Source of the DNA: an archaeon
Lineage (GTDB): Archaea > Iainarchaeota > Iainarchaeia > Iainarchaeales > JAAZKV01
DNA: 64,000 bases
Reading direction: 5' to 3'
Assembly: GCA_038046585.1 (NCBI GenBank)
Contig: JBBSVX010000013.1
Location: forward strand, 6,942-70,941
Below the pieces are notes generated by a model. It saw only the letters and a program-made list of their open reading frames with translations. It searched no databases and was not told the origin of the DNA. The position numbers and the translations under genes are program-made. This document shows, one piece after another, positions 3,936 through 34,539 of the stretch. Within the stretch, counting starts at the first letter, position 1. Each line of letters opens with the position of its first letter.

Positions 3936-5840
3936 CTACTTTAGCCTTACTGCGTCAAGATTTCTTATGGCGGTCGAGCTAATACCGAATTTTGCTGCGC
4001 AGTACTTGGAAAACTCAACACTCCTTGACGGATCGCCGTGATCTACAATGATTTTCTTTGGCTTTGGCTTCAGCGAAGCAACGTAAGCGCTTAGTTGGTT
4101 GAAATCGGAGTGCCCTGAGAACCCGTCGATTGTTTCTATTCTCATTTTTACGTCCACTCTTCTTGTTTTTCCGTTGTCGCTCACTGGGAGCGTCTTTAAT
4201 CCTTGCTGGATTTTTCTTCCAAATGTCCCTTCGGCCAAATATCCAACGAACACCAAAGTGTTTGACGGATTTTCCGCCATTTTGTAGAAATAATCTATTA
4301 CCGGTCCGCCATTCATCATTCCGCTCGTAGTTATTATTACTGCGCCGGAGTCTGCAACTATCTTGTCCCTCATATCTTTTTTTGCTTCGTTAAATACCGG
4401 ACTATCGAATGGAGAATCGTTTGTTAAAATTCTTTTTTCAAGGCTCTGTCGCAAGTATTCAGGGTACGCTGTGTGTATTGCGCTTGCTTCTCGCACCATT
4501 CCTTCAATGTAAATCTTGTTTTTGTCAGTTAGAACTCCTCTCTTGTAAGCATCTTCTATTACCATGCAGATTTCTTGCCCTCTTCCTACGCCGAATACCG
4601 GTATGAGAACATTTCCGCCAAATTGTGTTGTTTCAAGTATTATGTCAATTAGTTTTTGTTCCGATTCTTGTCTTGAGAGCTGCACTGCCGATTGAGAACC
4701 GTAAGTGCTTTCAACGATGAGTGTTTCAAGTCTTGGATATTTTATGTCCAAATTATCAAATAATCTTGTTGCACCGTATTTTATGTCTCCACTGTAAACG
4801 ACGTTATGCACCCCTTCTTTAATATTTATGTGCGCCGAGGCCGAGCCGAGTATGTGCGCTGCGTTATGCAGAGTAAGTCTCATGTCGGGGGCGATGTCAG
4901 TAACTTCCCTGTAATCTCGCGTGATGTTTTGCAAGAGCGCCTGTTTTACATCTTGTTCTGAGAATGGAACATCTTTTTCATTCGCTACGCTTACGTCCAA
5001 ATAATCAAAATGTAGTAGTGCCATTAAGTCTCTTGTCGGTTCGGTGCAATATATCGGTCCGTCAAATCCTAATCTTGTCAAGTAAGGTACTAGTCCAGTG
5101 TGGTCCGAGTGTGCGTGGGTTATTACCATCGCATCTATCTCGCTCATCGGGTATCCGAGTGAATCAATGTAAGGGTACGGATCGTCAGAGCTGAAGTTTA
5201 TCCCCGCATCGAGAAGTATTTTTGTGTGCTCTGTTTCAAGGAGCATACAGCTTCTTCCAACTTCTCTAAATCCACCAAGTGCAACGAGTCTTATCCATTC
5301 GTGTTTTGAGTGGGATACTTCTTCGTATATTTGTTCCGCGGTTTTTAAAAGGAATTTTTTTCGCTCATCGGCGTGTTTGTAGAGATGCCTTCTTATTCCG
5401 GATAGTATTTCTGATTTTGTTGTAGGAGCCCTTAATATTTTTGGGGTCCAACCGGTTTCAAGCACAATTCTCTTTGAGAGTTCTCCGCCTTTTCCTATTA
5501 CTAGTCCTTTTTTTACCGCTTCAATCACGACTTCGCTGAATGGTTCGTTGAAATAAACATCCTTTACATCCGCTTCCACAGGGATCATGGATAGGATCTG
5601 TTTCTTCGCTTGTTCTACGTTTGAAAGCAGTGTTTTGTCCGTTCTTATGTTAACTCTTTTTTTGAGTTCGAACGCAATTTTTGAGACAAGGTTATCTGCG
5701 CTAAAGAATGCTGCCGGGTTTCTGGTGTAAATTATTACTTCAGGCCCTTCCATCTCTACTTTTGTTATTTCGGCTTCTCTTGGAGCGATTCGCTTAAGAG
5801 CTTCATTGATGTCGTCAAGTATTTTCAGTTTTTGTACCAT
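3936..5840 (-). CDS. Archaeal CPSF1 homologue (KH + metallo-beta-lactamase + beta-CASP ribonuclease; transcription termination factor FttA/aCPSF1)
   Basis: N-terminal KH-like region, HxHxDH motif (VITHAHSDHTG), a 634-aa length, and the typical aCPSF1 C-terminal region. Confidence 0.9.
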   Translation of the reverse strand: MVQKLKILDDINEALKRIAPREAEITKVEMEGPEVIIYTRNPAAFFSADNLVSKIAFELKKRVNIRTDKTLLSNVEQAKKQILSMIPVEADVKDVYFNEPFSEVVIEAVKKGLVIGKGGELSKRIVLETGWTPKILRAPTTKSEILSGIRRHLYKHADERKKFLLKTAEQIYEEVSHSKHEWIRLVALGGFREVGRSCMLLETEHTKILLDAGINFSSDDPYPYIDSLGYPMSEIDAMVITHAHSDHTGLVPYLTRLGFDGPIYCTEPTRDLMALLHFDYLDVSVANEKDVPFSEQDVKQALLQNITRDYREVTDIAPDMRLTLHNAAHILGSASAHINIKEGVHNVVYSGDIKYGATRLFDNLDIKYPRLETLIVESTYGSQSAVQLSRQESEQKLIDIILETTQFGGNVLIPVFGVGRGQEICMVIEDAYKRGVLTDKNKIYIEGMVREASAIHTAYPEYLRQSLEKRILTNDSPFDSPVFNEAKKDMRDKIVADSGAVIITTSGMMNGGPVIDYFYKMAENPSNTLVFVGYLAEGTFGRKIQQGLKTLPVSDNGKTRRVDVKMRIETIDGFSGHSDFNQLSAYVASLKPKPKKIIVDHGDPSRSVEFSKYCAAKFGISSTAIRNLDAVRLK

Positions 5841-11337: not shown

Positions 11338-12063
11338 TTATTCTCTTGTCCATCTTTGCATTTCGCGCAAGGCTTTTTCAGCAGTTTCAATTACTAAAAG
11401 TTTTTTGTCAAGATCCTTTACCTGTTTTCCTGCAGCTTCCATCCTAAAATCCTTTAATTCATCAGCGTATTTTGCAACTTTTTTGTCTTTTTTGTAGATG
11501 ATTGAGGTTGAAACTGTTTCAGAGAGCTGTTTTCGATAATCAAGATCTTTCACAAACATTTTCACCATCGGTTTCCATTTTTTGTCCGCTACAAGGTGCG
11601 CAGGAAGTTTTACAATGTCTGCATCTTTTCGGTAATCTGCATCCGAAGCCATTTTTGCCATGTGTTCCCAATAGAGCGGTTCTTTTAGTTTTTTCAACTG
11701 GTGAAACTGGTGGTACATTGATGCTGAAAGGTGGCTCTTTTTCCAGTCGCCAAGCTTTTCCTGATAAAGTTTCTTTTTCTCAACTATCTCGTCAATTTTT
11801 TTTCCTAGTACCATCGATTCAGGATAGGATAATTTCGGCCAGTCTTTTCCCGATTCGTGCGCTTTAATTACGCCGCCCAAGGAAAAATATTTTTCAAGAG
11901 CTGCCCTTCGTTCGCCTTCTTTTGGGGACTTAGGAAATCTTTTCTCAAATTCTACTATTGAGGCGATTACATCAGTCATTCTATCAACTAAAGAAAAGTC
12001 TTTTGTGGTTAAAAAGGATGCTGGTTTTAGATGGAAAATTAGGCTTAGGATGAGGCTTCGCAT
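11338..12063 (-). CDS. Hypothetical protein
   Basis: 241-aa ORF whose start overlaps the end of the 890-aa surface-protein gene; no recognisable motif. An internal Met (MTDVIAS...) is an alternative start. Confidence 0.45.
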   Translation of the reverse strand: MRSLILSLIFHLKPASFLTTKDFSLVDRMTDVIASIVEFEKRFPKSPKEGERRAALEKYFSLGGVIKAHESGKDWPKLSYPESMVLGKKIDEIVEKKKLYQEKLGDWKKSHLSASMYHQFHQLKKLKEPLYWEHMAKMASDADYRKDADIVKLPAHLVADKKWKPMVKMFVKDLDYRKQLSETVSTSIIYKKDKKVAKYADELKDFRMEAAGKQVKDLDKKLLVIETAEKALREMQRWTRE

Positions 12064-14717
12064 CCGAAAGTCGCGTCTTCAATCCCTATCTTGTGAGGAA
12101 TGCCATAATTGGTATTGTAGCTTATTGTGACATCTATTGTCCTTTGTGCGCCCACGTTTGCGCAAGTGTGGGTCGTGTCAATAGTTATTTTCTTTTCATC
12201 CCCCACATCTAAGAAAAAATTTTGTGTGGCGTTCTGATCATCAAATTTTATGTCTGTAATTGTAACTCCTCCGGAAGTGTTGTTCTGTAGGATTATGGTG
12301 TAATTTCCGTCAAGCGTGACCACTCCGTCCATTATCCCTATGGGGCTTGTCTGCATCTTTATTTTTGAAGATCCTTCTGATACGCTTGCGCCCGATTCAA
12401 AAAACCCAGTCATCATCCCGGTTACAAGAAGCGCGACAACGACAATAATTGCCATGAGCACTAAGTATTCTATTGTTCCTTGCGCACCAGGTGCACCCGA
12501 GGCGGGAGGGTTTGCGGGAGGCTTTGTTGGGGGTGATTTTGGAGGATTTTTCTTTGCAGCATTTTGTGCGTTGAACTCATTGAGCTGAAGCATGTATTGT
12601 TCCATTAGTCTTCTGTAAGTAGTTTCGTCCATCTGCCCTTTCATGTATCCTTGCTCAAGAAGCTTCATCTTTAATTTAATTTCCTTGATTTTCTTTTCAC
12701 GTTCGTTTCGCATATTAAAAGTGTAGACCAAGAATCCGAATCCCACAAGAATCAGTATCACTCCAATCCCTATTACGGCCATTACTACCGTGTCGAGTCC
12801 GTCAAGAGAATATTTTACGCTCGGTTTTTTTGACGATGAGGGGAGGGCATTCCATATCACTTTTCCTTCTTCGGGAAACGATTCGCCTTTAGGATCCGCC
12901 ATAGGATAAAATGAATTTATTTTTGCGCCATTGGGAACAATTATTGTCAGCGAACTTGCGCCAAGTGTGCTTTCAACGTTCCAATCCCTAAATGTTACTT
13001 CGTAGCTGTTCCCCATTAAAGGAGTGATTAGCATATCTGTTTGAGTGATAAAATCAAGGATTAGATTTCCGCCTGCAAATGAAGCGAGGCAGGTTGATTT
13101 TTCAGTTGTAAAGAAACCCATTTTTTCAAACATGGCGTCCTGCGCGTAGAGTGTGTAATTGGTGCAATCGAATGAAGCGTACTGTGCAGTGCTGATGCCT
13201 ACATAGGCAAGGCAGGCCTCATTATAGGGGAGCAAAATATTGAGATCCACATCAGCTATTCCTTCTTTGCTGACCTTGAAAGATAGATCGAATTTTGTTG
13301 CGAGCGTCGTATCTATCGAGCACTCTGCGTCGCCTAAGGAAGCATCAAACCTTGCGATAGGGGTTCCCATCGTGCCAAAGTCGTTTTGGTCTACCTCTTT
13401 TTCCACAGTGTACACTACTTCGGCTTTTCCTTCTGGAGCAATGAAGGGTATCACAAACGCGATCACGGGATCATCTTCGATAACGACCATATTGTAGTCG
13501 GAGCGTATTTCGCTTGCAGAAAGGGCGATTTCTTTCGGGATTGTTTCAATGATTTCGACCCCTTCTATCGCATTTTGCGAAGGGTTTGACACTTCAATCG
13601 ATATTGTTGATTGTTTTTGCGCGTTGTCGTCTGAAGAGCGACTTACGACTATCCCTCTCTTGAATTCGAAACTTTTTGTTTCTTCAGAAAATTCTTTTTG
13701 GGAATTCTCGTCTATAGCATCGCCCAGTTTTCCCACTTGGTCCAAAACGTCCTCTTCTTTTGGAGTATAGATAATCTCTTGAGAATAGATTTTCGTCCTT
13801 ATCTCGTCAGGGGAAAAATAGTACTCTCCGATTATTTGCGGCGGGGCAAAAACGGTTCCTGAGGTTGTGACACACACCTTGACTCCGGCCAGATCGCCCT
13901 GCTCGACTGATTTGCATTTGTAATCTCCGTCGGTGACAGACAATATTCTTACAATAATTGCCTGCCCAAAAGATTTTTCGCATTTTATAGCGGAATTTAA
14001 ATCGGCTGCAATACTGCACTTGGTTATCGTTTCAAGGTATGCTTCCGGATCGAATTTGTTCTCTCCCGAGTCGACCATAGCATTCGTATCGTTGATTTTG
14101 CTAGAAGCCGAATTTGTATCTAAAACACAGCCTTGTGAAGTTGTGCAATTCGTTTCCTGGTTTATATCAGAACTCTCGGGCGGATAATATGGATTCATTA
14201 GCTGTCCGTTGCACCAGTTCTCATCGTACCCCGCGAGGTTTTTGGTGATATTGCAGTCAAGTTTTTGGGTTTGAGAACAATCAGTCACTTTGTTAACATT
14301 AGGGCATTCCTTTATTGTGCACCCGTTTTGGTCAACGTATGTATTGCACTCAACCGCAGTTGCGGCGATGGCTTTCCACTGGCACTTGTTGTCAGAGCAG
14401 CCGCAGTAGAGATTGTAATCTACTGCCTTGTAGCAATCCGCGAATTGGCAGGTGGCGAGTGCATCAAACTTTTCATTAGCTCCTCCGCAATTACTGTCAT
14501 AGCAGCCTCCTGTTTTGCACTCAGAATCAAGTTTGCATAAGGCGTAAGTTGACGTTCCGCAGAACGAAGCGTTAGATGGAGCAGTATTTATGCTAGGGGT
14601 TGTGTTTGTATTCAAGTCCGCATCTGTTCCCTTTATAGGACTGTCAAGCGCAAGAACCGAGCCGGCAACTATCGCGACAAACAGAACTGCGAGTAGGACG
14701 AAAAGTGAGTTACTCAT
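12045..14717 (-). CDS. Large Sec-secreted, Cys-rich, membrane-anchored protein with an internal class III signal peptide and a complete pilin-like module fused at its C-terminus
   Basis: N-terminal signal peptide (MSNSLFVLLAVLFVAIVAGSVLA) and a Cys-rich ectodomain. A TM helix (VVMAVIGIGVILILVGFGFLVYTF) is followed by a basic coiled segment and a Pro-rich linker (KKNPPKSPPTKPPANPPASGAPGA). Then comes QGTIEYLVLMAIIVVVAL plus a 145-aa domain homologous to the N-terminal domains of the ORFs at 15693 and 32881. Confidence 0.7.
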   Translation of the reverse strand: MSNSLFVLLAVLFVAIVAGSVLALDSPIKGTDADLNTNTTPSINTAPSNASFCGTSTYALCKLDSECKTGGCYDSNCGGANEKFDALATCQFADCYKAVDYNLYCGCSDNKCQWKAIAATAVECNTYVDQNGCTIKECPNVNKVTDCSQTQKLDCNITKNLAGYDENWCNGQLMNPYYPPESSDINQETNCTTSQGCVLDTNSASSKINDTNAMVDSGENKFDPEAYLETITKCSIAADLNSAIKCEKSFGQAIIVRILSVTDGDYKCKSVEQGDLAGVKVCVTTSGTVFAPPQIIGEYYFSPDEIRTKIYSQEIIYTPKEEDVLDQVGKLGDAIDENSQKEFSEETKSFEFKRGIVVSRSSDDNAQKQSTISIEVSNPSQNAIEGVEIIETIPKEIALSASEIRSDYNMVVIEDDPVIAFVIPFIAPEGKAEVVYTVEKEVDQNDFGTMGTPIARFDASLGDAECSIDTTLATKFDLSFKVSKEGIADVDLNILLPYNEACLAYVGISTAQYASFDCTNYTLYAQDAMFEKMGFFTTEKSTCLASFAGGNLILDFITQTDMLITPLMGNSYEVTFRDWNVESTLGASSLTIIVPNGAKINSFYPMADPKGESFPEEGKVIWNALPSSSKKPSVKYSLDGLDTVVMAVIGIGVILILVGFGFLVYTFNMRNEREKKIKEIKLKMKLLEQGYMKGQMDETTYRRLMEQYMLQLNEFNAQNAAKKNPPKSPPTKPPANPPASGAPGAQGTIEYLVLMAIIVVVALLVTGMMTGFFESGASVSEGSSKIKMQTSPIGIMDGVVTLDGNYTIILQNNTSGGVTITDIKFDDQNATQNFFLDVGDEKKITIDTTHTCANVGAQRTIDVTISYNTNYGIPHKIGIEDATFGCEASS

Positions 14718-15692: not shown

Positions 15693-17567
15693 ATGAAAAA
15701 CCATTCCGCGCAAGGAACAATAGAATACTTAGTAATCATCGCGGTCGTGGTAGTCATCTCGCTCGTTGTTGTCTCGATGCTTGTCGGATTCACGAACCAA
15801 GGGGAAAACGTTGCAACAGCAAGCTCACAAATATCAACAATGACCTCGCCAATAGCAATCGTTGATTCAGAATCAACACTCGACGGAAACATCTTTTTAG
15901 GATTCAAAAACAACACAGGAGAAACAATCACAATAACAGAAGTACTCGTAGGCGACGAATCACTACCAAACATCAACCAAACAATTACACAAGGCGCCCC
16001 CGCAAACATCGTAATCAACACCACAAAAAACTGCACACCCGGCACCACCATCACCACAACAATAACAACAAACTACACAACATCAACAGGCCTAACAAAA
16101 ACACAAAAACTAGAAAACATCCAAATCAACTGCAGCGACATAAACCTAAACGAAGGCATACTAGAGCAAACACAAGGCGGAACTCCCCCAACAGGGCCGG
16201 GAATTGATTTACAAAACGGATTAATCGCACACTACAAGATGAATGAAGACGCGATAGATACAACAGTTTCAGATAGCACAGGAAACAACGATGGAGTGCT
16301 AGTCAGAAATTTCGACTTAATATCAAGCACAAACTTAATGGCAACTTCAAAAATAAATGGCGCGCTAAGCTTTGATGGAAGCAGCGATTACATTGATACC
16401 GGCGCCCAACCGATTGGCGCAGGAAATAATCCTTTCTCAATTTCGTGCTGGTTTAAGACCACAAAACCTGACGGGGAAGAATATATGTGGGCAATAGGAG
16501 GAGACTTTTTCAGCGCCGACAACACTTATGCGACAGCAGGGGTCTCTTATGATGAAGATGCAGTGGGGATATTAATCTCAGGCAACTGGTTTGCGCGTGC
16601 TTACGCTTATGGAATCCGAGATGGGAAGTACCACCATTTTGTTTTTACGCATGATGGAAGTCAGGGAACTTTATGGCTGGATGACGTGAACGTGGGCTAT
16701 GGAAACACATCTTCACTGAATCTAGGAACGGCTAATCTACTTATTGGAAAAAATGCTACTTGGCCAACTTGGGATGGATCACTCGATGATTTTAGAGTAT
16801 ATAGCACAGCCCTTGGTCCAAGCGATATCGCAGCGCTATATAATTCAGGCGCAGGGACTGAAAGCGAAAGCGGCGCGCTTGGAACAAATCTTGTTGCGCA
16901 CTACAAGATGAATGACAATGCGGCAAGCACAACGGTTGTCGACAGCAGGGGAGATTATAACGGGACATCTCAAAGAGATACAAACATTTTGATTTCTTCT
17001 AAGATTAACGGTTCATTCAGTTTCAACGGAATCGGCGAATATGATCCAGATATAACTGCGGACTATATCGAAGCCGGGACCCCAAACGGGGACCTAAATA
17101 TAACTGGAGACAAACTTTCAGTATCTGCCTGGGTAAAAAGATCAACAGAAGACAGATATGATTGGATAGTCGGAAAAATGGGCTCAGGCGCAGGCTCTTG
17201 GTGGATGGACATTCAAGCATCCCACCTCGGAAATTTTGTAGACTTTGCAATAGACACTGACAGCGGACCAGGACTTGGCGGAGGAACAACGGACATTGCT
17301 TTACCTAATGATGGCACATGGCACCACGTCGTAGGAGTTTATGACGGAACCAATGTAATTGTATACGTGGACAATGCCGCATCCACCCCAATACCAACTA
17401 CAGGGAACATTGTTCCCAGAGAATATTCAACAAAAATTGGCTGGGAAGATGGATGGGACTCGCAAACATTCAAGGGAAGCATGGATGATCTTCGAATATA
17501 CAACAAAGCATTAAGTACAGAAGAAATTGCAGCAATCTATAACGACGGAAACGGAACAGAAAACTGA
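15693..17567 (+). CDS. Pilin-like adhesin: class III (type IV prepilin-like) signal peptide plus conserved pilin-like domain plus Thr-rich linker plus two LamG/concanavalin-A-like lectin domains
   Basis: MKNHSA|QGTIEYLVIIAVVVVI, with Q+1/E+5 as in EppA-type DUF361 prepilins. Two Laminin_G_3-like repeats (about 16206-16863 and 16875-17564) carry the 'W...K...HH.V..DG...LW.DDV' pattern. A TTATTATA box lies about 25 nt upstream. Confidence 0.8.
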   Translation: MKNHSAQGTIEYLVIIAVVVVISLVVVSMLVGFTNQGENVATASSQISTMTSPIAIVDSESTLDGNIFLGFKNNTGETITITEVLVGDESLPNINQTITQGAPANIVINTTKNCTPGTTITTTITTNYTTSTGLTKTQKLENIQINCSDINLNEGILEQTQGGTPPTGPGIDLQNGLIAHYKMNEDAIDTTVSDSTGNNDGVLVRNFDLISSTNLMATSKINGALSFDGSSDYIDTGAQPIGAGNNPFSISCWFKTTKPDGEEYMWAIGGDFFSADNTYATAGVSYDEDAVGILISGNWFARAYAYGIRDGKYHHFVFTHDGSQGTLWLDDVNVGYGNTSSLNLGTANLLIGKNATWPTWDGSLDDFRVYSTALGPSDIAALYNSGAGTESESGALGTNLVAHYKMNDNAASTTVVDSRGDYNGTSQRDTNILISSKINGSFSFNGIGEYDPDITADYIEAGTPNGDLNITGDKLSVSAWVKRSTEDRYDWIVGKMGSGAGSWWMDIQASHLGNFVDFAIDTDSGPGLGGGTTDIALPNDGTWHHVVGVYDGTNVIVYVDNAASTPIPTTGNIVPREYSTKIGWEDGWDSQTFKGSMDDLRIYNKALSTEEIAAIYNDGNGTEN

Positions 17568-19850: not shown

Positions 19851-22800
19851 TTGGCGGAAAATGAGCCAATTTTCATATTGCGCACATATAGTATATATAA
19901 TATAGAGAATTTTAGGGTTTTTTGGTCTTCTTTGGTGGACGTTGTGGGCTTTAACGAATTTGTTCAAAAAATCATCAATAAGGCTAAAAGCGTTTACTTC
20001 TTTTTCGAAGACAAATGGTATTCGGCGCTTGACCGAATCGACAAATACATTCCAATTTACAAAATAGTGGATCCAATCGACAAGGTCATTCCAAGCTTTG
20101 TGCTTTTCCTTCTCCTGCTACTTTTCTTACTTTTGTTGATGGGGTACCTCGCCAGGTTTTACGCGCCCTACGAAATCACTTTCCTTACTTACGATTCGAA
20201 GACAAGTAATTTCCTCCCGGGAGTAAAACTTAGCGGAGACATAGATGGCGATCCTTTTGATGGAGTAACCGACAAGAACGGACTTTCAAAAGTAACTGTA
20301 GAAGGGGAGGGGCGTAATTTTTTCGAGGCAGTGGCAAATATTTTCTTTCCTAGCAGCGAATATCCTCCGGCAAAAGTCTCTGCTGAAAAAATAGGGTATG
20401 TTTCAATCAAGGATAAAAACATAGAATTTGATTCTAAAGAATACAAGCTTCTTCTCCAACCAGCCCCTGAAGAAGATGTTCCCCAGTACAGTGATTTTGC
20501 GAATGTAAAACTAATTGATTCCACTACAAACGCAGCAATAGTTGATCAGAGCGGACAAGCTTATGTTAAGTTCAGCTGCAAAAACATTTCAAATTTCACT
20601 CCAAAAAGCGTGAGAGACAACGCTGATGGAAAAGTTGACGGAATTTTTAAGCTAACGGAAAACGCCTGCGATTTTGAAGTAACTAAAGCTTATTCCCCAG
20701 GATACGAAAGCCTAAGTATTACAACTTCGGTGAAAGGAGGAGACACAACAGAAATAGAAATGGATAAGGCCGAGACGGACGATACAGGGACTGCGAAGGT
20801 AAGGCTATACGAAAAAGGATCATCACCTGTAAAATATGTTGCAGGATCGAAAGTAGTATTTACAGGAGTAAATGAAACGCAAGAAGGAACAAGCGACTCG
20901 ACAGGATGGGTAAGAAAAGAAGGGATGAAAGTTGGAACATACACCATAACAGTAAAAGATTTGAATTATTATGAAATACTTCCCTCGGACAATGTAAAAA
21001 TAACAATCAAGGCAGGAGACACAAATGAAATAGAAATTGGGCTTACAAAAGTTAATCCGCAGGATATGAGAGTGGTTTACTTTAGAGTGATTGATTCAAA
21101 CAGCAGGACCGCTATTGCAAGCGCAACGGTTGATCTCATAACTCTTTACTACGATGCAAACAGAGGCTGCTACGCCGCCGACTCAAATAGAGACGGAGTG
21201 ATATATGAATCAAGCAACCCTACAATGACTGATTCAAACGGACTTTACAAAAAAGCAGCATTCACAATCAGAAGCGAAGGATATCTTGTAGCAGTAGTGC
21301 GAAAAGAAGGGTACATTTACAAGGTTTTTAAGCCAAAACTCTTTGATGTGAATTCGGGGCCCGAAACGGTAGAACTTAGTTTTGCAACAGAACAAAACAG
21401 CGGGAACGCAAAAATAATTGTTTCATCTGATTTGAATAGATATCTTGTCGGAGCGTCAACATATATTTACACTGATCTCAATTTGGGAACAGGAACATGT
21501 TCTAGCATCACAAACATAAAAGTCAACAAGGACGGAATATTAACTAACAGCGCGGGAGAAGCGCTTTACAAATATTTGCCAAGAGGAACTTACTCTGCTT
21601 CCGCTTGGTTTGATGACACGTTTTCAGGAATAACTCCAAAGCAGGATCTTGACATAAACCAGACAATTGTTTTTAATATCAGGATGAGCGTGAACGTTGC
21701 AAATCTTAGAGTAACTCTTAAGGATGCAATAACAGGAAGCATAATATCCTCCTCGAATGCAAGCGTAAAAGTATACACTGCCAGTGACGCAGAGTTCGAC
21801 ACACTTTACCTTTCAGAGACTCTAGCATATTCTAGCGGAAAGTTTGTAAGCAACGGCGGATATGCAAAGAAAAGCAGATTAGTGATTATGGCCGATTCGA
21901 ATGACTATGCGCCAAACAGCATTTATATTGACGGACCAATAACCCCTTTAGTTACAGGAAACAACGATTTCAATATGGCGCTTTACTCTGTCGCATCGCT
22001 TTATGATGTCAACATATTTTACATAAACGTCTTCACTACTAGTGACAATCTTTCAGGAACATCAAGCGTTGCAGGCCTAATGAGAGGAAACGATTATTAC
22101 GCGAAATTTGATGCAGTCATAGGAAAGAATCTCACATATCAAGAACTTCTTTCAATGATAAGAGTTGAAGGCCCTGTCGCGATAAAGAATGTCAAGCTTG
22201 TGAACATGTTGCCTTACAATTCAAAATCGCAATTGTACACTAAAAACACTTCGGCGATGGATTCACTGATAAGCCCTCACGATGACAACTACTACTTCCC
22301 GCCCACCTCGTCATACGTTGAGGCTGACAAGAGCTTAGTCCAGCTTGGAATTGATTGGACTTTGGTTAACGGAGTTTTGCCAAGAGGCACATACACTTTC
22401 GCGGTGAGATTCACAGTTGACTCAAATTCCTCCGACAACGACACGATGACGCTCAAATACAGAGCGAAGACAAAGCACTCTACTGGAACTGCTGAGACGC
22501 CTCTTGGATCCACAACTATCGCGCTCAACAAGGCAATCAAGACAGGCGTATTCTTCGTTGTCGAATACAAGGGAGTCAGCGAAATAATTGACAGCGGCGA
22601 CGCAAGCGACATTATGCTCCTTTCCTCAACCATAAGAAACGATATCAAAGTAACTCTCCAGAACAACACTTCCTCTGCGCTTTCTGGCGGAACATACAAC
22701 GTTTACTCTTATGACGGGCTGAAGAACACCTTCACTGAAAGCACAGGCGGAAGTGGATATGTTCACTTCAATTCAATTGATGGAAACAAAAAAAGTAATC

Positions 22801-24812
22801 TCTCAAACAGCCTCTCAATACCAACCGAACAAGGTTACACTACTACTCTAGCAGTTTACCCTGAAAAATTCAATTCAAGCAACTACATTGTTCTTTACGC
22901 TACATTTGGTTCTACTACTTACTCTACTTTCCTCGATGTTAAAGCATCAGGAAAACAACTCAACTTGCTTGCAGAATTTTTGGCTGGAGTGAACAACCAG
23001 AACTTCGATGGAGAAATATTCCCTAAAGATTCTGCCGATGTTGGAAGCCCTTTGGCACTTTCAGCAGTAACTCTTGCAACATACCGTTCATGCATAATAG
23101 ATTCCAATCACAGAGTATACAGCGAAACTCTTCCTTCTGCAAAAATGGCAGGGGACTTTTTCTCAACAATTGTAGACAACGTATATGAGTACAATGTTGA
23201 TTGCATAGTTGTCGACCTTGAAGCGGATGATGGAACATACAGCTATGAACCGCTCCACGAAGAAATAAAAGCTGGATCTGGCGGAACGTTTGACCCCACT
23301 CTTTCCTGCATCGACGTATCAACCCCCACGGGAGAAAAAATTATTTATCTTGAGTGGGATAAGAACCAAAAAATTGTTGTTACAAATAACTGCGCAAAAG
23401 ATGTTGTAGTAAAACTTGAAACAGGACTTGTTTGCACACCCGCTAGCGGAGTAACTTGCAGCGCGGATGCCACAATAAACGTTGGACAGGACAGAAATTA
23501 CACAATCACAGGAAAAAACATAGAATATGACCCCACAGCAGTAAAGCCAAACTTCACCGACATATTGGGATACTTCCCCGTGTTCGTTAAAGGAAGGTAC
23601 TATAGCGAAGGCAACAAGAAATTTGTTCTCGTTGATAAAGAAGAGGTTCACGTATCAAACTCGAACCAGTGCTTCGCAATATCAAAGGACATTTTTGATT
23701 TCACTGAATCAACTTCGCCGACAATTAACTTTGATGTTAACAGCTTTTGCCAGTACAATTTGATAGGCGACTTCTATGTCCCTCAGGCAAGCCTTTCCTC
23801 TTTTGGATATGACATCAACCTGGCCGTAGCAAAGCCTACCGCCAGCGTAACTTTCACCCCTTCACTAATGGTCACAGGAAACGGATACACCACTACAACT
23901 TATGATATAAATCTCTCAAGTTGGTGGGCTGCAATGATGATAGTGCCGAACAAAGCAACTTCGACTCTTGACACAACCAACCCGCTCTTGCCTTTCAGGA
24001 AATACTATAACATCAGCTTCAATGCGCTCGCATATGATCTGCCAGGGGATGCAAACAAATTACAGTTCACTTGGATAGATAAAAACAGCGAATACTTTAA
24101 CGAAAAGAAACCTTACGGGGCAGAGATAGATGGAAATGTCATTGTTACTTACACTAATGGGACAACTTACTCATTCATCCCTTCATATAATTTCTCAATA
24201 AAGAACGGCACAGTATCTTGCGTAAGCATTTCAACACCGCAATCAGGAGAGTACTGCGAACTTGGCGCTGATGTCGGCGAGAATAACCCTGACGGAGGAA
24301 AACTCGCATTCGGATTATTCTACATGAACATCCCAAGAGGAGACATAGCTAAAGTAGATTTCAACATTATAGGAGACTCAAACACTGAAAATCTCGAAAT
24401 AAAAATTAAGCCTTACACTAATTTCACTGAAACTAGAACATCCGTTACGCAGACAACAGGCGCATCAACTTACTCAATACCCCTAACGCCTTACTCCATT
24501 TATCCACTCGAAGATGTGGTGTACTTGCTTAAGCACATAAGCCAATTGAACACGTTCTCCGATTCGGCATTCTTAGGAGTAAATAATCCTACAACATACC
24601 TTGTAACGGACAATGCAAATGTTCTCGCTTGGGTTGAAGCGGGTTACCTCAAGGCAGCATATGTCGGAACTGATATCTCGCAGTATAACGACAAGTCTCT
24701 TGAATTCAAGCTTGTTAGAACATTCGGTCAAGGAATAGGGTACGGAATAGTGAACGTTGATGATTATGTTGCCACTGAATCTAGCAATGGCAAGGATATT
24801 AGCGGAGATTAA
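19851..24812 (+). CDS. Giant surface protein A (1653 aa): conserved cytoplasmic N-terminal 'KWY' motif, signal-anchor TM, then many carboxypeptidase-regulatory/transthyretin-like beta-sandwich repeats
   Basis: Paralogue of the 2216-aa ORF at 52423..59073. Their N-termini align (VYF..E.KWY..L.RI..Y.PI.K..D.ID.V.PSF.LFL) before a poly-Leu TM helix. Repeats of the type TDSNGLYK...GTYTI recur. The first 80 nt of the track ORF contain a TATATATAATATAG box and no in-frame ATG, so the true start is probably TTG/GTG at about 19932-19944. Confidence 0.8.
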   Translation: MAENEPIFILRTYSIYNIENFRVFWSSLVDVVGFNEFVQKIINKAKSVYFFFEDKWYSALDRIDKYIPIYKIVDPIDKVIPSFVLFLLLLLFLLLLMGYLARFYAPYEITFLTYDSKTSNFLPGVKLSGDIDGDPFDGVTDKNGLSKVTVEGEGRNFFEAVANIFFPSSEYPPAKVSAEKIGYVSIKDKNIEFDSKEYKLLLQPAPEEDVPQYSDFANVKLIDSTTNAAIVDQSGQAYVKFSCKNISNFTPKSVRDNADGKVDGIFKLTENACDFEVTKAYSPGYESLSITTSVKGGDTTEIEMDKAETDDTGTAKVRLYEKGSSPVKYVAGSKVVFTGVNETQEGTSDSTGWVRKEGMKVGTYTITVKDLNYYEILPSDNVKITIKAGDTNEIEIGLTKVNPQDMRVVYFRVIDSNSRTAIASATVDLITLYYDANRGCYAADSNRDGVIYESSNPTMTDSNGLYKKAAFTIRSEGYLVAVVRKEGYIYKVFKPKLFDVNSGPETVELSFATEQNSGNAKIIVSSDLNRYLVGASTYIYTDLNLGTGTCSSITNIKVNKDGILTNSAGEALYKYLPRGTYSASAWFDDTFSGITPKQDLDINQTIVFNIRMSVNVANLRVTLKDAITGSIISSSNASVKVYTASDAEFDTLYLSETLAYSSGKFVSNGGYAKKSRLVIMADSNDYAPNSIYIDGPITPLVTGNNDFNMALYSVASLYDVNIFYINVFTTSDNLSGTSSVAGLMRGNDYYAKFDAVIGKNLTYQELLSMIRVEGPVAIKNVKLVNMLPYNSKSQLYTKNTSAMDSLISPHDDNYYFPPTSSYVEADKSLVQLGIDWTLVNGVLPRGTYTFAVRFTVDSNSSDNDTMTLKYRAKTKHSTGTAETPLGSTTIALNKAIKTGVFFVVEYKGVSEIIDSGDASDIMLLSSTIRNDIKVTLQNNTSSALSGGTYNVYSYDGLKNTFTESTGGSGYVHFNSIDGNKKSNLSNSLSIPTEQGYTTTLAVYPEKFNSSNYIVLYATFGSTTYSTFLDVKASGKQLNLLAEFLAGVNNQNFDGEIFPKDSADVGSPLALSAVTLATYRSCIIDSNHRVYSETLPSAKMAGDFFSTIVDNVYEYNVDCIVVDLEADDGTYSYEPLHEEIKAGSGGTFDPTLSCIDVSTPTGEKIIYLEWDKNQKIVVTNNCAKDVVVKLETGLVCTPASGVTCSADATINVGQDRNYTITGKNIEYDPTAVKPNFTDILGYFPVFVKGRYYSEGNKKFVLVDKEEVHVSNSNQCFAISKDIFDFTESTSPTINFDVNSFCQYNLIGDFYVPQASLSSFGYDINLAVAKPTASVTFTPSLMVTGNGYTTTTYDINLSSWWAAMMIVPNKATSTLDTTNPLLPFRKYYNISFNALAYDLPGDANKLQFTWIDKNSEYFNEKKPYGAEIDGNVIVTYTNGTTYSFIPSYNFSIKNGTVSCVSISTPQSGEYCELGADVGENNPDGGKLAFGLFYMNIPRGDIAKVDFNIIGDSNTENLEIKIKPYTNFTETRTSVTQTTGASTYSIPLTPYSIYPLEDVVYLLKHISQLNTFSDSAFLGVNNPTTYLVTDNANVLAWVEAGYLKAAYVGTDISQYNDKSLEFKLVRTFGQGIGYGIVNVDDYVATESSNGKDISGD

Positions 24813-30514: not shown

Positions 30515-32830
30515 TTGGGAAAAATGGAAAATATTTTCGAAACACAGATGAACAAAAACACGGTTTTTCTTAACAAGGACATTATCTCTTCGCATTATAC
30601 TCCTGAAAAGCTTCCTTTCAGGGAAAAACAAATCAATGATATTACTCAAGGATTAGGCGCTGTGACAAACAACGCAAAACCAAACAATCTTTTTGTTTAT
30701 GGAAAGACCGGCTGCATCGCAGGAGACAGTCTTGTTTATACGAGCAATGGGTGGAAGAAAATAAAAAATGTCGACGCTTTGAGCGATCTTGTTTTAACTT
30801 TCAATAAGGAAACAAAAAGATATGAATGGTCCGAATTTGTATTCCTAAAGTTTGAGAACAAAGATCCCCTCCTCAAAGTTACCCTTCAAAACGGATATGA
30901 GCTCGTTGTCACCAAAGACCATCCCTTGCTTAAGTCAACAATGGAATGGTGCAAAGCAAACGAACTGCTGGCCGGAGATGAACTAGCTCTTGCGCACAAC
31001 TTGCCGTCGCTAAACGAACATGAGATGCCTCTCGCTTTGGCACGATTGCTAGGATTCACACTTAGCGATGGAAGCCTGAACAGAAGACAAAGAAGAACAA
31101 AAGACGGCAGAGGAAATTATTACAATTCCGACAGACAAAGATTTCGGTATTTTAGCATAGACAATGCCCTATTAAGCAAGGTACAGTCAGATGTCAGAAA
31201 TCTGTTCGGGGGAACACCTTCAATAATCTACCCAAAAGACAGGTGTTCACACGTCAACATCATCTCGCAGGAAGTCTGTCAGGTATTAAACTCATTAGGG
31301 GTACCATTCGGAGAGAAGAGTGGAATCATCGAAGTACCGGAGTCAGTGCTTGAGGCGTCCCCTCAAATACAAAAAGAATTTTTAAAGGCGCTTTTCTCCG
31401 GAGACGGCACAGTCAGTCAGCAAACATACCAAATAGAGTACTACTCAAATTCCAGAAAGTTTCTGCAACAAGTGGCGTGCCTGCTTTACCAAGAAGGAAT
31501 TGAATGCAAGGTAAAGTATAAGCCCGCCAAATTGAACGGTGTGACATATGATGCACACAGACTTTACATACAAGGCCAAGGAAACATAATGAAATACTAT
31601 TATAAGATAGGATTCTACAGCATTGCAAAACAGGAGAAGCTTGAAAAAATGATTGCAAAATATGTGAAGAATATGCCAGTAAACGAAAAAGGCTATGCTC
31701 TTTCACCAATAGCAAAGATTGAAGAAACATTTGAAGAATTTGTTTACGACCTCACTGTCCCAAAGAATCACAGCTTTATCGCTAATGGAATAATTTCCCA
31801 CAACACTGGAAAAACTAGTACTGTGAAGCATGTTCTTGAGCAGCTCGGAGAATTTGTAAAAAAAAGAGAGCTTTCAGTAGGCTCGGCTTACATTAACTGC
31901 AGAAGCCACTCCTCGAAATACAAAGTCTTATTGAAAGCAATAAGAGGGTTCTACCCTGAAAAAGATTTCTTGGGTTACAGCGCTTCTTTTGTTTATGAAA
32001 AACTCTTAGAATATGCGATTGAAAAGAAAGCGCACCTCATCCTAGTGCTTGATGAGATAGATAAGGTAAAGGATATTGATGATTTGGTTTACTCGCTTAG
32101 CAGGGGAAATGACGAACTCCACGGAGCAGGATCTGTTACTCTAATTGGAATCTCAAACAACCTTACTTTCAAAGAAAAGCTTGATCCTAGAACCAAGAGT
32201 TCTCTTTGCGAACGCGAAATGGTTTTTGATCCTTATAATGCGAACGAACTAAAAGAAATCTTGCACGAAAGGTGCGCCGTTGCTTTCAAAGAGAAAGCTG
32301 TTTCCGATAGCGCAATAGCGCTCGCCGCTGCTATTGCAGCACAGGAATCTGGCGACGCAAGAACCGCAGTAATGTTAATGCAGCGCGCGGGAGAAATAGC
32401 GGACAGTGAAGAAGTTACTATTGTAAGCGACAAGCATGTGGAAAAGGCAAAAGCAAGCGTTGAAGAGGAAATAATAATTTCAATGATATCAACTCTTCCC
32501 CAACAACAACAAATGGTGCTCTACGCAATTTCACAACTCACCACACAAAAGAAGGGTCTACGAAAAGTTAATGGAGAAATCGAAGAAGGAGTTCTTTACT
32601 CCGGAGAAATATTTGAATCTTATTTGGAACTTGCAAAGAAATTCGGCGAGCACACAATTACAAGCAGGTGGTATAGGCAATACATTAACGAGCTTGAAAT
32701 GTACGGACTCATATTTGTAACTAGTTCCGGAAAAGGAATCAAGGGACAAACAAGACTAATTAAACTCGGGTTTGATGCGATGAAGATAAAATCGGCGCTT
32801 GAGAAAGAACTTTTTAAGCAGATGAACTAG
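30515..32830 (+). CDS. orc1: Orc1/Cdc6 replication initiator, interrupted by an intein in the Walker A P-loop
   Basis: N-extein ...NLFVYGKTG, C-extein TGKTSTVKHVLEQL..., then AAA+ box motifs (LVLDEID), sensor regions and a C-terminal winged helix. The host protein is about 407 aa after splicing. Confidence 0.9.
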   Translation: MGKMENIFETQMNKNTVFLNKDIISSHYTPEKLPFREKQINDITQGLGAVTNNAKPNNLFVYGKTGCIAGDSLVYTSNGWKKIKNVDALSDLVLTFNKETKRYEWSEFVFLKFENKDPLLKVTLQNGYELVVTKDHPLLKSTMEWCKANELLAGDELALAHNLPSLNEHEMPLALARLLGFTLSDGSLNRRQRRTKDGRGNYYNSDRQRFRYFSIDNALLSKVQSDVRNLFGGTPSIIYPKDRCSHVNIISQEVCQVLNSLGVPFGEKSGIIEVPESVLEASPQIQKEFLKALFSGDGTVSQQTYQIEYYSNSRKFLQQVACLLYQEGIECKVKYKPAKLNGVTYDAHRLYIQGQGNIMKYYYKIGFYSIAKQEKLEKMIAKYVKNMPVNEKGYALSPIAKIEETFEEFVYDLTVPKNHSFIANGIISHNTGKTSTVKHVLEQLGEFVKKRELSVGSAYINCRSHSSKYKVLLKAIRGFYPEKDFLGYSASFVYEKLLEYAIEKKAHLILVLDEIDKVKDIDDLVYSLSRGNDELHGAGSVTLIGISNNLTFKEKLDPRTKSSLCEREMVFDPYNANELKEILHERCAVAFKEKAVSDSAIALAAAIAAQESGDARTAVMLMQRAGEIADSEEVTIVSDKHVEKAKASVEEEIIISMISTLPQQQQMVLYAISQLTTQKKGLRKVNGEIEEGVLYSGEIFESYLELAKKFGEHTITSRWYRQYINELEMYGLIFVTSSGKGIKGQTRLIKLGFDAMKIKSALEKELFKQMN
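30713..31804 (+). mobile_element. Intein (364 aa) with LAGLIDADG homing-endonuclease domain inserted in the orc1 P-loop
   Basis: Begins with Cys (CIAGDSLVYTSNGW...) and ends ...GIISHN followed by Thr. Two LAGLIDADG-like blocks (LLGFTLSDGSL, ALFSGDGTV) sit between the Hint halves. Confidence 0.8.
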
Positions 32831-32880: not shown

Positions 32881-34539
32881 ATGCATTTGAGAAAGAAAAA
32901 TGCGCAAGGCACAATAGAATATCTTGTGATAATTGCGGTAGTGGTGGTCATAGGACTTATTGTCGTATCCATGCTAGCAAATTTTACTGGCCAAGGTTCG
33001 CAGATAACATCCGACAGCGTAAAAATCGGTTCCGCTTCGGCACCAATAAGCGTGACAAACTCGGCAGTTGACATCAGCGGAAACGGACTCCTAACAATAG
33101 GCAACAATACTGGGGAAAATGTGACCATAACAAAAGTCAAGACGGGGGACCTAGAGACTTCTTTCAACCAAACAATTCCTTCAGGAAGCCAGGATACATT
33201 CTCGCTTAGCAATCTCGGCCTCAACTGCGCCTGCGAATCGACAACAGCCGCCTCAAAAGAATGCGAATTCACCATATACACCACATCGCAATACGGAATT
33301 GTGAAGAGCGAAACAATCAAGGTAATCATTGATTGCGTGCAGAGCGCAAAAGCGAGTGATTCAAGAAGCCCGGTAGTGCTTGCAGTGCTTCCAGACATCA
33401 ATACTTGCGCGGGCTTCGGATTCACCGACGGAACGATAAGTTGTCTCACAAGAAACGGACCTGAGTGCACATCTTATGACGTGAATAATTGCTACAATGA
33501 TGGAAATATAAATGAAATTTACGACCCAAGCCTGAATGGCACTGATTATGTGATAGCCAATGATTGCTTCCAAGTGCCTACAAAGTTCTGTTCGGGTGGG
33601 GCAAGCAGCTGCGTTGGAAAAACCATTTCCATACTCTCAGGGCCCTTTCAGGGAAGTTATTCCATAAGCGAATCACTGAAATACACCAGCACATCAGGCC
33701 ACCCCGCGGGCTCCGATTATTATGACACTTACTCAGGCTACCCCGCATATTATTTTAGCGCTGATTCGCTTGATATGACTCCTAATTACTTAAGCACTAA
33801 CTGGCCCTACAAGCTTTACGGGCCAAACACCGGGGTCCCACGACCTGTTTGTGGAAACGGAGTAAGAGACGGAAACGAAGAATGTGACGGCTCTGATTTT
33901 GCATTTAATACCTGCACAATGATGGGAAAAGGATATGTTGGAGGAACGCTCGCATGCAGTTCGGAGTGCACATATAATCACGCAAGCGACAGCAATAATG
34001 TATACTGCATACCCCCTCTGACAAATTGCACTCCAAGCAATCCTTGCGAAATATTGTCCTGCGAACATCTGGCTCACATAGGCGACAGCGGCACGAGCAT
34101 GACTGGAAGCTATTACTTAAACAGAGACATTGATTGTAACAAGGGCGGCGGAAATATTGGCGCGTATGATGGTTTTGAATTTACAAGAAGATTCACAGGC
34201 ACTCTCGACGGGCGCAATCATACCATATACAACCTATTTCTGCAAAGCAGCGTGCTAGGCACAATATGGTGGACGGACATGCGCATGGGCTTATTCAGGT
34301 ACGTCGATACGGGAGGACTTGTGAAAGATTTGAATCTCGTAGACTCGAACGTCAACGGGTCCAGCAGGGTCGGATCTGTCTCCGGCGAATTTAGAGGCAC
34401 TCTCAATAACGTCCATGTTACGGGGCGCGTCTACGGCTACAGCTCGAGCTATTCTGTAGGGGGACTTGTGGGCAGGGACAACGGCGGAACTTTCATCAAT
34501 TCAACTTTCACAGGCCCCATAGAGTATTATACTTCATGA
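32881..34539 (+). CDS. Pilin-like adhesin: class III signal peptide, conserved pilin-like domain, Cys-rich myxo-type repeat and GLUG-motif beta-helix region
   Basis: MHLRKKNA|QGTIEYLVIIAVVVVIGLIVVSML. The pilin-like domain (SAPISVTNSAVDISGNGLLTIGNNTGENVTITKV) is homologous to 15693 and to the C-terminus of 12045. It carries CGNGVRDGNEECDGSDF and repeated GGLVG/GGLV motifs. The opposite-strand ORF 32853..33470 is an antisense artefact. Confidence 0.75.
   Translation: MHLRKKNAQGTIEYLVIIAVVVVIGLIVVSMLANFTGQGSQITSDSVKIGSASAPISVTNSAVDISGNGLLTIGNNTGENVTITKVKTGDLETSFNQTIPSGSQDTFSLSNLGLNCACESTTAASKECEFTIYTTSQYGIVKSETIKVIIDCVQSAKASDSRSPVVLAVLPDINTCAGFGFTDGTISCLTRNGPECTSYDVNNCYNDGNINEIYDPSLNGTDYVIANDCFQVPTKFCSGGASSCVGKTISILSGPFQGSYSISESLKYTSTSGHPAGSDYYDTYSGYPAYYFSADSLDMTPNYLSTNWPYKLYGPNTGVPRPVCGNGVRDGNEECDGSDFAFNTCTMMGKGYVGGTLACSSECTYNHASDSNNVYCIPPLTNCTPSNPCEILSCEHLAHIGDSGTSMTGSYYLNRDIDCNKGGGNIGAYDGFEFTRRFTGTLDGRNHTIYNLFLQSSVLGTIWWTDMRMGLFRYVDTGGLVKDLNLVDSNVNGSSRVGSVSGEFRGTLNNVHVTGRVYGYSSSYSVGGLVGRDNGGTFINSTFTGPIEYYTS

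Follow-up and report, generated by a model that had tools for sequence, protein, structure and literature searches.

Two of three related genes in a 64,000-nucleotide stretch of DPANN-type archaeal DNA (here called the window) probably encode archaeal modular type IV pilins of the Epd/System 1 kind, which display adhesive modules on a pilus. The third gene encodes a membrane-anchored surface protein fused to a short pilin and is the unusual one of the three. All three belong, with nothing exceptional about their membership, to a very large and previously undescribed family of likely attachment proteins. DPANN archaea are thought to need contact with a host cell, yet few of the molecules responsible for it are known. 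An earlier note on this DNA had interpreted the three proteins as a small new family of pilus-associated adhesins, an interpretation that our analysis supports in part.

Three genes share a class III signal motif and a homologous head

Protein A (624 aa; positions 15693-17567, forward strand) and protein B (552 aa; 32881-34539, forward strand) begin with MKNHSA↓QGTIEYLVIIAVVVVI and MHLRKKNA↓QGTIEYLVIIAVVVVI, respectively (arrows mark the −1/+1 junction of the motif), and protein C (890 aa; 12045-14717, reverse strand) contains the internal sequence ...SGAPGA↓QGTIEYLVLMAIIVVV, with Gln746 at nucleotide 12482. A six-frame regular-expression search of the window found exactly three copies of the motif, against a mean of 0.03 copies in 300 mononucleotide shuffles and 0.05 in 300 triplet shuffles (maximum, 1). 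They lie in the three ORFs whose N-termini the earlier note had listed, where AQGTIEYLV is joined to a hydrophobic helix and to a domain of ~100 aa that is homologous in all three. Gln at +1 and Glu at +5 are present in A, B, and C, confirming the class III layout that had been read from them. The leaders of A (6 aa) and B (8 aa) both end in Ala and are followed by a hydrophobic stretch; C has no such short N-terminal leader, its motif beginning at residue 745. In none of the three is the −2 residue Lys or Arg.

The label "EppA-type" attached to these proteins describes no more than a resemblance. EppA substrates are defined by Q+1/E+5 (PMC3875500), and in this the three resemble them, but the −1 residue is Ala in all three instead of the Gly of the Epd type, and no EppA-type peptidase is annotated in the relatives' operons inspected. 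The proposed check with Pfam Class_IIIsignal/DUF361 (PF04021) went against the label as well, with A scoring 14.0 bits and B 21.8 bits against a gathering score of 23.7 and C giving no match.

The heads of the three proteins are homologous across ~150 aa, with 38 to 42% identity (A versus B, BLASTP E = 2e-20) and 35 invariant alignment columns, including P-I, G-N, N-N-T, T-I-T, and one Cys. The conserved block pattern drawn up previously describes A and B well but C only loosely (NNTSGG, not NNTGE). Over their first 32 codons, A and B differ by 17 synonymous and 5 nonsynonymous substitutions, indicating that the helix is under purifying selection. With 17 synonymous differences in this region, recent gene conversion was discarded as an explanation for the identical helices of A and B.

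Predicted pilin fold of A and modules appended to A and B

In A, a predicted class III leader (MKNHSA, 6 aa; 15693..15710, forward strand), with predicted cleavage after Ala6, precedes a pilin module (15711..16142, forward strand) composed of an alpha-1 helix (residues 7-49, starting QGTIEYLVIIAVVVVI...) and a seven-strand beta-sandwich (residues 54-147), in which an NNT sequon is conserved and Cys114 pairs with Cys147. The interval 15693-16142 corresponds to residues 1-150, i.e., the entire head. The AF2 model of the head confidently shows a 43-residue N-terminal helix and the beta-sandwich (pLDDT 90.6), and Foldseek ranks type IV pilins and archaellins of archaea as most similar to it. The predicted structure is that of a pilin, with an extended N-terminal helix joined to a globular, beta-rich head, and bears out the suggestion that the shared domain is pilin-like.

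The remainder of A (16143..17567, forward strand) consists of a Gly/Pro/Thr linker (~residues 157-178) and two Laminin_G_3 (ConA-like lectin) modules separated by a Ser/Gly linker. The two LamG domains previously noticed were readily recovered (PF13385, E = 6.7e-40 over two stretches, the best at residues 457-613), and the same head-plus-LamG arrangement recurs at six of the relatives' loci. A pilin module is here followed by a domain not specific to pilus biology, as in a modular pilin. The NCBIfam TafC model also matches the LamG region of A (E = 2.9e-15); kinship with TafC was rejected because the LamG part alone is matched, with 56 bits against a cut-off of 410.

The leader of B (MHLRKKNA, 8 aa) and its pilin module (residues 9 to ~155) occupy 32881..33345 (forward strand), as delimited by alignment and the Class_IIIsignal hit. 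They are followed (33346..34539, forward strand) by a Cys-rich region (~residues 176-400) and a C-terminal Peptidase_M26_N/GLUG-like region (residues 406-552). The GLUG beta-helix attributed to this region is backed weakly: Peptidase_M26_N scores 24.5 to 27.9 bits around a cut-off of 27.7 (E = 1.9e-5; 1.8e-6 at 27.9 bits when scanned alone), a single Glug motif at 15.8 bits lies under its cut-off, and the match to the IgA1 protease 6xjb has E = 0.027. As to the myxo-type Cys repeats, one CGNGVRDGNEECDG-type copy can be spotted by eye, but no model matches it. A Cys-rich tail like that of B stands behind the head at a further six loci of relatives. B thus weakly shows the modular arrangement, with an extra nonpilus domain after the pilin module.

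The head defines a very large family

An exhaustive profile search placed the three proteins in a family of at least 2,239 clusters at 50% identity, spread over many Iainarchaeota/Diapherotrites-type genomes and with at least 8 to 9 copies per genome in related ~1-Mb genomes. A and B themselves are already present in public collections, and for some members the name "class III signal peptide-containing protein" is in use. The idea of a new three-member family had therefore to be abandoned. About 75% of the members are long, and most of these are dispersed, away from the pilus operon. In a set of 91 long members, GLUG (24/91), LamG (21/91), and Lcl_C (16/91) tails are the most frequent, so that A, with two LamG modules, and B, with its Cys-rich and GLUG-like regions, represent the two commonest architectures.

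A logo of 117 copies, in which Gln+1 and Glu+5 are present by construction since the search pattern required them, shows near invariance at the residues left free: Gly+2 (97%), Thr+3 (93%), Ile+4 (94%), Tyr+6 (97%), and Leu+7 (99%). At −1, 87% of the copies have Ala and 13% have Gly. Identity outside the AQGTIEYL signature is ~35 to 40%. PF04021 matches 44 of the 91 long relatives (E ≤ 1e-3). Because neither Pfam nor NCBIfam offers a model for the globular head, most members, A and B among them, are labeled hypothetical. A family model for the head would reannotate thousands of proteins.

Linkage to pilus assembly genes in relatives and proposed role of A and B

Short members of the family lie directly downstream of a T2SSE-T2SSF-T2SSF gene set, encoding an ATPase and two platform proteins, in loci L025, L035, L041, L045, L051, and L079/L080, with variants of this layout in L086, L087, and L091. 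Small DUF361-like proteins (MDRKG↓QISMEF) are encoded in the same operons, as is a LamG protein of 718 to 1,631 aa with a class III N-terminus of its own. System 1 (Epd type), which occurs in methanogens, Thermococcales, and DPANN, is characterized by one ATPase gene together with two platform genes (bioRxiv 10.64898/2026.04.22.720090). The proposal of pilus-borne or pilin-anchored adhesins fits these relatives, in both the placement of the short paralogues and the LamG class III protein of the operon, but the architecture of C departs from it.

The window maps to the Hainich groundwater contigs R1_8 (226.6 kb) and R1_114 (65 kb), from sample H43 (0.2 um; ENA ERZ1292640), with ~6-7x coverage. 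No pilus assembly gene or peptidase was found in the window or in the 10 kb beyond its flank markers FttA (3936-5840, left) and DnaJ (61959-63086, right), and a crude screen for GxGD(x)K in polytopic ORFs, a weak negative at most, detected no prepilin peptidase in the window or in ~1.1 Mb of relatives' loci. A 204-aa ORF with four transmembrane segments (41100-41714) was rejected as a divergent peptidase because it has neither a Pfam/NCBIfam match nor a GxGD motif. Four likely ATPase loci proved to belong to other organisms; one of them, from Hainich well H51, was rejected as the source genome's own on account of its GC content (48 to 52% versus 41%) and lack of nucleotide similarity.

We propose that a prepilin (class III signal) peptidase would remove the short leader of A and B after Ala−1 on the cytoplasmic side, exposing Gln+1 and leaving the hydrophobic alpha-1 helix with Glu+5. 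A machine of the Epd/System 1 type, with one PilB/FlaI-like ATPase and two PilC/FlaJ-like platform proteins, would then pull the helix from the membrane and pack it into the core of a pilus made mostly of the short (~145-aa) paralogues, whose helix is almost the same. The bulky C-terminal modules (two LamG in A, Cys-rich and GLUG-like in B) would be displayed, most likely at the pilus tip, where they may attach to glycans or to the surface of host cells. A single pilus drawing on a large set of interchangeable subunits (in relatives, 8 or more for each ~1-Mb genome) could in this way provide a small, probably host-dependent archaeon with a varied attachment repertoire. Leader cleavage, polymerization, tip location, and ligand binding of A and B are all steps we infer, whereas the motif, the homology, the domains in the tails, the size of the family, and, in relatives, the linkage to operons are direct observations and the fold is a structure prediction.

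An unlikely alternative is that the class III signal is processed without long pili being formed, the proteins building short pseudopili or being anchored in the envelope through the alpha-1 helix. The head would then be a sorting or anchoring device for lectin-like ectodomains, as proposed for the Sulfolobus Bas sugar-binding proteins. The predominance of long, mostly dispersed members is consistent with such an arrangement, as is the fact that a single tip holds few subunits while genomes encode at least eight; class III signals on archaeal nonfilament proteins are, moreover, established (Szabo 2007 and Zolghadr 2007, as cited in PMC3875500). However, the long forms and the short pilins linked to the operons have nearly the same alpha-1 helix, which suggests packing in one polymer; the tails are lectin or beta-helix modules and not substrate-binding proteins, and no Bas-like accessory genes were seen. 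That the N-terminus is never cleaved and acts as a plain type II membrane anchor for surface adhesins, its class III likeness reflecting shared ancestry rather than present use of a pilus machine, is quite improbable, for although the peptidase and assembly genes missing from the window and flanks, the subthreshold PF04021 scores, and the −2 residues would agree with it, the near invariance of AQGTIEYL at pattern-free residues is far above what a membrane anchor needs and the short paralogues are tightly linked to ATPase/platform operons in several genomes.

Protein C is a fusion with reversed module order

The claim that each head is followed by a divergent adhesive tail does not hold for C, which ends with the head and in which the order of modules is reversed relative to a modular pilin. 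All parts of C lie on the reverse strand. Residues 1-23 form a signal peptide and residues 24-643 a large Cys-rich ectodomain (together 12789..14717), as delimited by NCBIfam matches and hydropathy; the ectodomain includes a heavy_Cys (eight-cysteine-cluster) domain (TIGR04289, E = 8.1e-9, residues 61-114), and no Pfam family matched the rest of it. At 12564..12788 follow residues 644-667, a transmembrane segment, and residues 668-718, a cytoplasmic tail rich in Lys and Arg that contains ...MKGQMDETTYRRLMEQYMLQLNEF, as predicted from hydropathy and from similarity to L068, one of the relatives, where a separate 321-aa membrane protein has a similar C-terminal tail (49% identity over 51 aa, E = 4e-12). 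A Pro-rich linker, NAAKKNPPKSPPTKPPANPPASGAPGA (12486..12563), leads to the internal class III-like site between Ala745 and Gln746 and, at 12045..12485, to a short-type pilin module (145 aa, Gln746-Ser890) identified by motif and alignment. This module resembles a stand-alone 165-aa pilin encoded directly downstream of the tail gene in L068 (33% identity, E = 2e-8). The membrane-protein and pilin parts of C are thus separate, adjacent genes in that relative, with a stop codon, a ~100-nt spacer, and a GTG start at the position matching the linker. In C, a direct reading of the DNA shows no in-frame ATG, GTG, or TTG within the linker, the nearest upstream Met lying 37 residues before the Gln.

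There is an even chance that the internal site of C is not processed as such, and that C is one two-pass hairpin protein with both large domains outside, or yields the pilin from an internal start (Met ~37 to 41 residues upstream), or represents a population-level fusion mutation that inactivated the pair. No other copy with the head far from the N-terminus was found among 119 motif matches in the loci examined or in the top 150 representatives, positions −2 and −3 are occupied by Gly and Pro and lack a charge close by, and L068 keeps the two parts as separate genes, all of which favors this explanation. Against it, the identical 890-aa ORF is present on at least four contigs, the linker is G+C rich, Pro rich, and in frame, not a decayed AT-rich spacer, and the predicted topology sets the site correctly, on the cytoplasmic face after the Lys/Arg-rich tail.

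Only tentatively do we suggest that C is a pilin "polyprotein," in which a type I membrane protein (ectodomain, transmembrane segment, and conserved cytoplasmic DETTYRRL tail) would serve as a 745-residue leader and a prepilin peptidase would cut between Ala and Gln to release a 145-aa pilin. If true, this would couple production of the pilin and its partner 1:1. C also offers a simple test case for whether an archaeal prepilin peptidase can cut internally. With the same reserve, Iainarchaeota-type DPANN more broadly may use one pilus machine with a large library of interchangeable modular tip adhesins for host recognition.

Relation to known systems

The family supplies cloneable candidates for host contact, combining a pilin handle with LamG, GLUG, Lcl_C, propeller, and other binding modules, and extends to archaea, at large scale, the "modular pilin" idea so far catalogued for bacteria only. 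In bacteria, modular pilins with ConA-like/PF13385 modules have been proposed to be tip adhesins; PilC of Streptococcus sanguinis, which with PilB belongs to this group, bears a lectin module of the ConA-like type, and PF13385 ranks among the domains most often grafted (Raynaud et al. 2021, PMC8179133; Shahin et al. 2023, PMC9934059). The bacterial proteins are defined by IPR012902 and have Gly−1 and an N-methylated Phe or Met at +1, whereas the family described here has Ala−1, Gln+1, and a beta-sandwich head, and the archaeal motif AQGTIEY is unlike the bacterial G↓F/M-x-x-x-E. The present family is also far more expanded per genome and is known here from sequence and models.

The Epd pilins of Methanococcus maripaludis (EppA, DUF361/PF04021) share with it the short leader, Gln+1, and Glu+5, and the Epd system and the relatives' locus have in common the System 1 hallmark. 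Pilin genes are dispersed there too, and larger class III proteins with adhesin-like domains occur. However, Epd leaders end in Gly and those described here in Ala, the ~100-aa beta-sandwich of the pilins studied here has no counterpart in the major Epd pilin, which is without a globular domain, eppA lies inside the epd operon while no peptidase was seen in the relatives' operons, and A, B, and C fall under the PF04021 threshold.

The Sulfolobus bindosome (Bas) likewise involves functional ectodomains with class III signals and a type IV pilus-like assembly system for surface localization. Its ectodomains are ABC-transporter sugar-binding proteins without a shared pilin beta-domain, in contrast to the conserved pilin head with lectin or beta-helix modules found here; Pfam identified no solute-binding-protein family in A, B, or the long relatives, which instead have LamG and M26_N/GLUG-type domains. 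TafC of the Haloarcula hispanica Tat-fimbriae is an archaeal filament subunit with a structural domain at its N-terminus and, behind this, a laminin-G-like module proposed to be the adhesin, but it is exported by Tat and assembled by donor-strand exchange, whereas the route proposed for A and B is the type IV pilus machinery. Finally, the PilY1/minor-pilin complex places a large adhesin at the tip of bacterial type IV pili, much as the relatives' operon combines small pilin-like genes with a giant LamG protein; PilY1 itself is not a pilin, whereas the adhesive modules described here are fused straight to the pilin module.

The pilin-like head of proteins A, B, and C

The window is archaeal and DPANN-like in character (GC content, 41%), with genes for FttA, a proteasome subunit, NAC, PolD DP1 and DP2, Orc1/Cdc6, SecD/F, CDP-archaeol synthase, and SepF. 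Three of its proteins contain an AQGTIEYLV-type class III motif: A (positions 15693 to 17567, + strand, 624 aa), B (32881 to 34539, + strand, 552 aa), and C (12045 to 14717, − strand, 890 aa), in which the motif is internal (Gln746, at nt 12482). All three sequences, i.e., the N-termini of A and B and the internal copy in C, were present exactly as given in the earlier note. A six-frame scan with Q[GAS][ST][ILVT]E[YFL][LIVM] found exactly three copies in the window, compared to a mean of 0.03 to 0.05 (maximum, one) in shuffled sequence.

The shared head domain that the note had described was also borne out. A, B, and C align over ~150 residues with 38 to 42% identity and 35 invariant columns (A versus B heads, BLASTP E = 2e-20). 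The helix is identical in A and B, yet their first 32 codons from Ala-1 differ by 17 synonymous and only 5 nonsynonymous changes, so the identity is held by selection; the 17 synonymous differences rule out recent gene conversion. AlphaFold2, with a 60-sequence alignment, predicted for the A head a 43-residue N-terminal helix (residues 7 to 49) followed by a seven-strand beta-domain (pLDDT 90.6, pTM 0.74). A conserved pair of Cys residues (C114/C147 in A) may be disulfide-bonded within the final hairpin. An NNT sequon is invariant in position in the three heads (15909 to 15917, 33103 to 33111, and 12276 to 12284 [− strand]), its Asn being nearly invariant across the family; N-x-S/T sequons total 13 in A, 9 in B, and 10 in C.

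The globular part of the head matched no Pfam or NCBIfam model in A, B, or C. Pfam Class_IIIsignal (PF04021) scored 14.0 bits in A and 21.8 bits in B, both under the gathering score, and did not match C; it matched 44 of 91 long relatives (E ≤ 1e-3). The designation "EppA-type" thus stands for a resemblance only: the Methanococcus maripaludis EppA substrates share Q+1 and E+5, but their leaders end in Gly (PMC3875500).

A large modular family

The earlier note took A, B, and C for a new three-member family. A three-head profile retrieved 217 proteins in a word-indexed search. Run exhaustively against 1.84 billion cluster representatives, it retrieved 2,239 (E ≤ 0.001), A and B themselves among them; tightening the threshold to E ≤ 1e-10 left 1,349, and to E ≤ 1e-30, 474. 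The family is therefore large and already existing, though unnamed and mostly unannotated, with some members labeled "class III signal peptide-containing protein" or UPF0333. Where the source of a member is named, it is "Candidatus Iainarchaeum," "Ca. Forterrea," Diapherotrites, or "archaeon," and fetched stretches of individual ~1-Mb genomes hold at least 8 to 9 copies (78 loci, reference genomes). The head begins within 80 residues of the N-terminus in all of the best 150 matches, which are 138 to 1,790 aa long overall. In 117 copies, Gln at +1 and Glu at +5 being imposed by the search pattern, the predicted cleavage site is preceded by Lys/Arg at −2 (59%) and Ala (87%) or Gly (13%) at −1 and followed by G-T-I (+2 to +4) and Y-L (+6 to +7), every one of these residues being ≥93% conserved. 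Short ORFs (mature length, ≤215 aa) make up 24 of the 96 that are complete, and 65 reach at least 400 aa.

The two LamG domains proposed for A were confirmed as two Laminin_G_3 domains (E = 6.7e-40), Gly/Pro/Ser/Thr linkers separating them from the head and from one another. B has a Cys-rich middle region and a C-terminal region with one subthreshold GLUG motif. The C-terminal region passes the Peptidase_M26_N threshold only when scanned alone (27.9 bits versus a cutoff of 27.7) and also weakly matches pneumococcal IgA1 protease in that enzyme's N-terminal region. The commonest tail families in the 91 long members are Glug (24), Laminin_G_3 (21), Lcl_C (16), and Peptidase_M26_N (8), with propellers, Ig domains, and others being rarer. 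Since Glug and Laminin_G_3 lead these counts and many reference loci have further heads followed by A- or B-type tails, A and B are typical of the two commonest architectures. Their kind is already known, being that of modular type IV pilins and of archaeal proteins with class III signals.

In some relatives a degenerate second cleavage motif lies just upstream of the real one (locus L023, ~199; L042, ~1256 and ~4479; also L016, L017, and L061; e.g., AQGTIEPLKAASIAQGTIEYL and TQGTIAPSRRTSIAQGTIEYL), which could mean that the leader/cleavage region has been duplicated in tandem or that the ORF has a long extension.

Protein C

The architecture attributed to C was not upheld, its pilin being the C-terminus, behind a membrane protein. 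C begins with a signal peptide and a Cys-rich ectodomain of 620 aa that includes a heavy_Cys domain; a transmembrane segment then leads to a cytoplasmic tail rich in Lys and Arg. Behind a Pro-rich linker, which lacks an in-frame start codon, come the class III-like site and, as the last part, a short-type pilin of 145 aa. The related NCBIfam model TIGR04292, which matches C weakly, assigns the heavy_Cys domain to a CGP-CTERM-anchored protein.

In L068, the sole other genome where such a pair was found, the counterparts are two adjacent genes, encoding a 321-aa membrane protein (tail 49% identical to that of C over 51 aa, E = 4e-12) and, ~100 nt downstream, a 165-aa pilin (33% identity to the C head, E = 2e-8). 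Among the loci compared, the tail motif MK.Q.DETTYRRL.EQY.L.LN occurs in these two genomes only (window 12564 to 12716, − strand; L068 3030 to 3217), ending a membrane-anchored surface protein that adjoins (L068) or is fused to (C) a short pilin. The fused 890-aa ORF is identical on at least four contigs, and no distant internal head was seen in the other family copies examined. Because its predicted topology would place the site on the cytoplasmic face, for the peptidase, C could be a polyprotein cut at the internal class III-like site; it could equally stay uncut, or its pilin could equally be made from an internal start.

Pilus operons

No ATPase, platform, or peptidase genes were found in the window. 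The window maps to two Hainich groundwater contigs, which showed no pilus genes in the 10 kb past FttA (left) and DnaJ (right) and, among the 120 best ATPase matches, no close ATPase homologue; none of the loci inspected showed an A24 peptidase. A Hainich-derived pilus operon was rejected as the source genome's own, its GC content differing and indicating another organism.

In relatives, a 983-kb "Ca. Iainarchaeum" contig carries a T2SSE assembly ATPase gene and two T2SSF platform genes followed directly by two tandem 149-aa family members. Short family members likewise come directly after these genes in L025, L035, L041, L045, and L051, and slightly variant pilins (QGTTEYL) follow the T2SSE-T2SSF-T2SSF operon in L086, L087, and L091. 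The opposite strand encodes small proteins with class III-like N-termini (e.g., MDRKG|QISMEF). The operons also include a LamG protein of 718 to 1,631 aa whose own N-terminus is K(A/G)|Q(S/T)TIE; in L089 three LamG genes lie next to the operon. The giant LamG proteins, with K(A/G)Q(S/T)TIE(S/L) unlike the AQGTIEYL family, are a second, operon-bound class of LamG-bearing pilin-like proteins. Their grouping with the small class III-like proteins is conserved (L080 11310 to 18553, − strand; L035, L041, and L051).

Other genes in the window

The Walker A loop encoded by the Orc1/Cdc6 gene (30515 to 32830, + strand) is split at GKTG|C...HN|TGKT by an intein (Intein_splicing, E = 5e-19) that carries a LAGLIDADG endonuclease (LAGLIDADG_3, E = 4e-13). 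Beside CDP-archaeol synthase lies a 177-aa archaeosortase/exosortase-like membrane protein (46009 to 46542, − strand; Exosortase_EpsH, E = 1.3e-7). Two giant surface proteins (19851 to 24812, + strand, 1,653 aa; 52423 to 59073, − strand, 2,216 aa) are paralogues sharing an N-terminal cytoplasmic motif plus transmembrane segment, KWY..L.RI..Y.PI.K..D.ID.V.PSF.LFL (BLASTP E = 7e-17), with only weak CarboxypepD_reg/MG3-like matches. The window extends over two ENA contigs that are separate from each other, R1_8 and R1_114. Gene calling on R1_114 (L081 14014 to 19498) gives, in place of the 2,216-aa ORF, one of 1,654 aa with a further gene behind it, which means that the assemblies or strains are not the same within this giant gene.

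A model for A and B

The feature is real and the pilin-adhesin reading of it reasonable, within a large existing family for which "EppA-type" marks a resemblance. The best-supported interpretation treats A and B as archaeal modular pilins. A prepilin peptidase would remove the leader, the conserved alpha-1 helix would pack into the core of a pilus made of short paralogues, and the C-terminal modules would be displayed outward for binding, probably at the tip; we infer cleavage, polymerization, tip position, and ligands alike. The archaeal TFF "System 1" (Epd type), reported from methanogens, Thermococcales, and DPANN, has as its stated hallmark one ATPase combined with two platform genes; the same paper also notes class III proteins with adhesin-like domains (bioRxiv 10.64898/2026.04.22.720090). 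The model for A and B parallels bacterial modular pilins such as Streptococcus sanguinis PilC, which presents a pilin module plus a ConA-like lectin module at the tip, and the >1,200 bacterial proteins cataloged with comparable architectures, PF13385 fusions among them (PMC8179133, PMC9934059).
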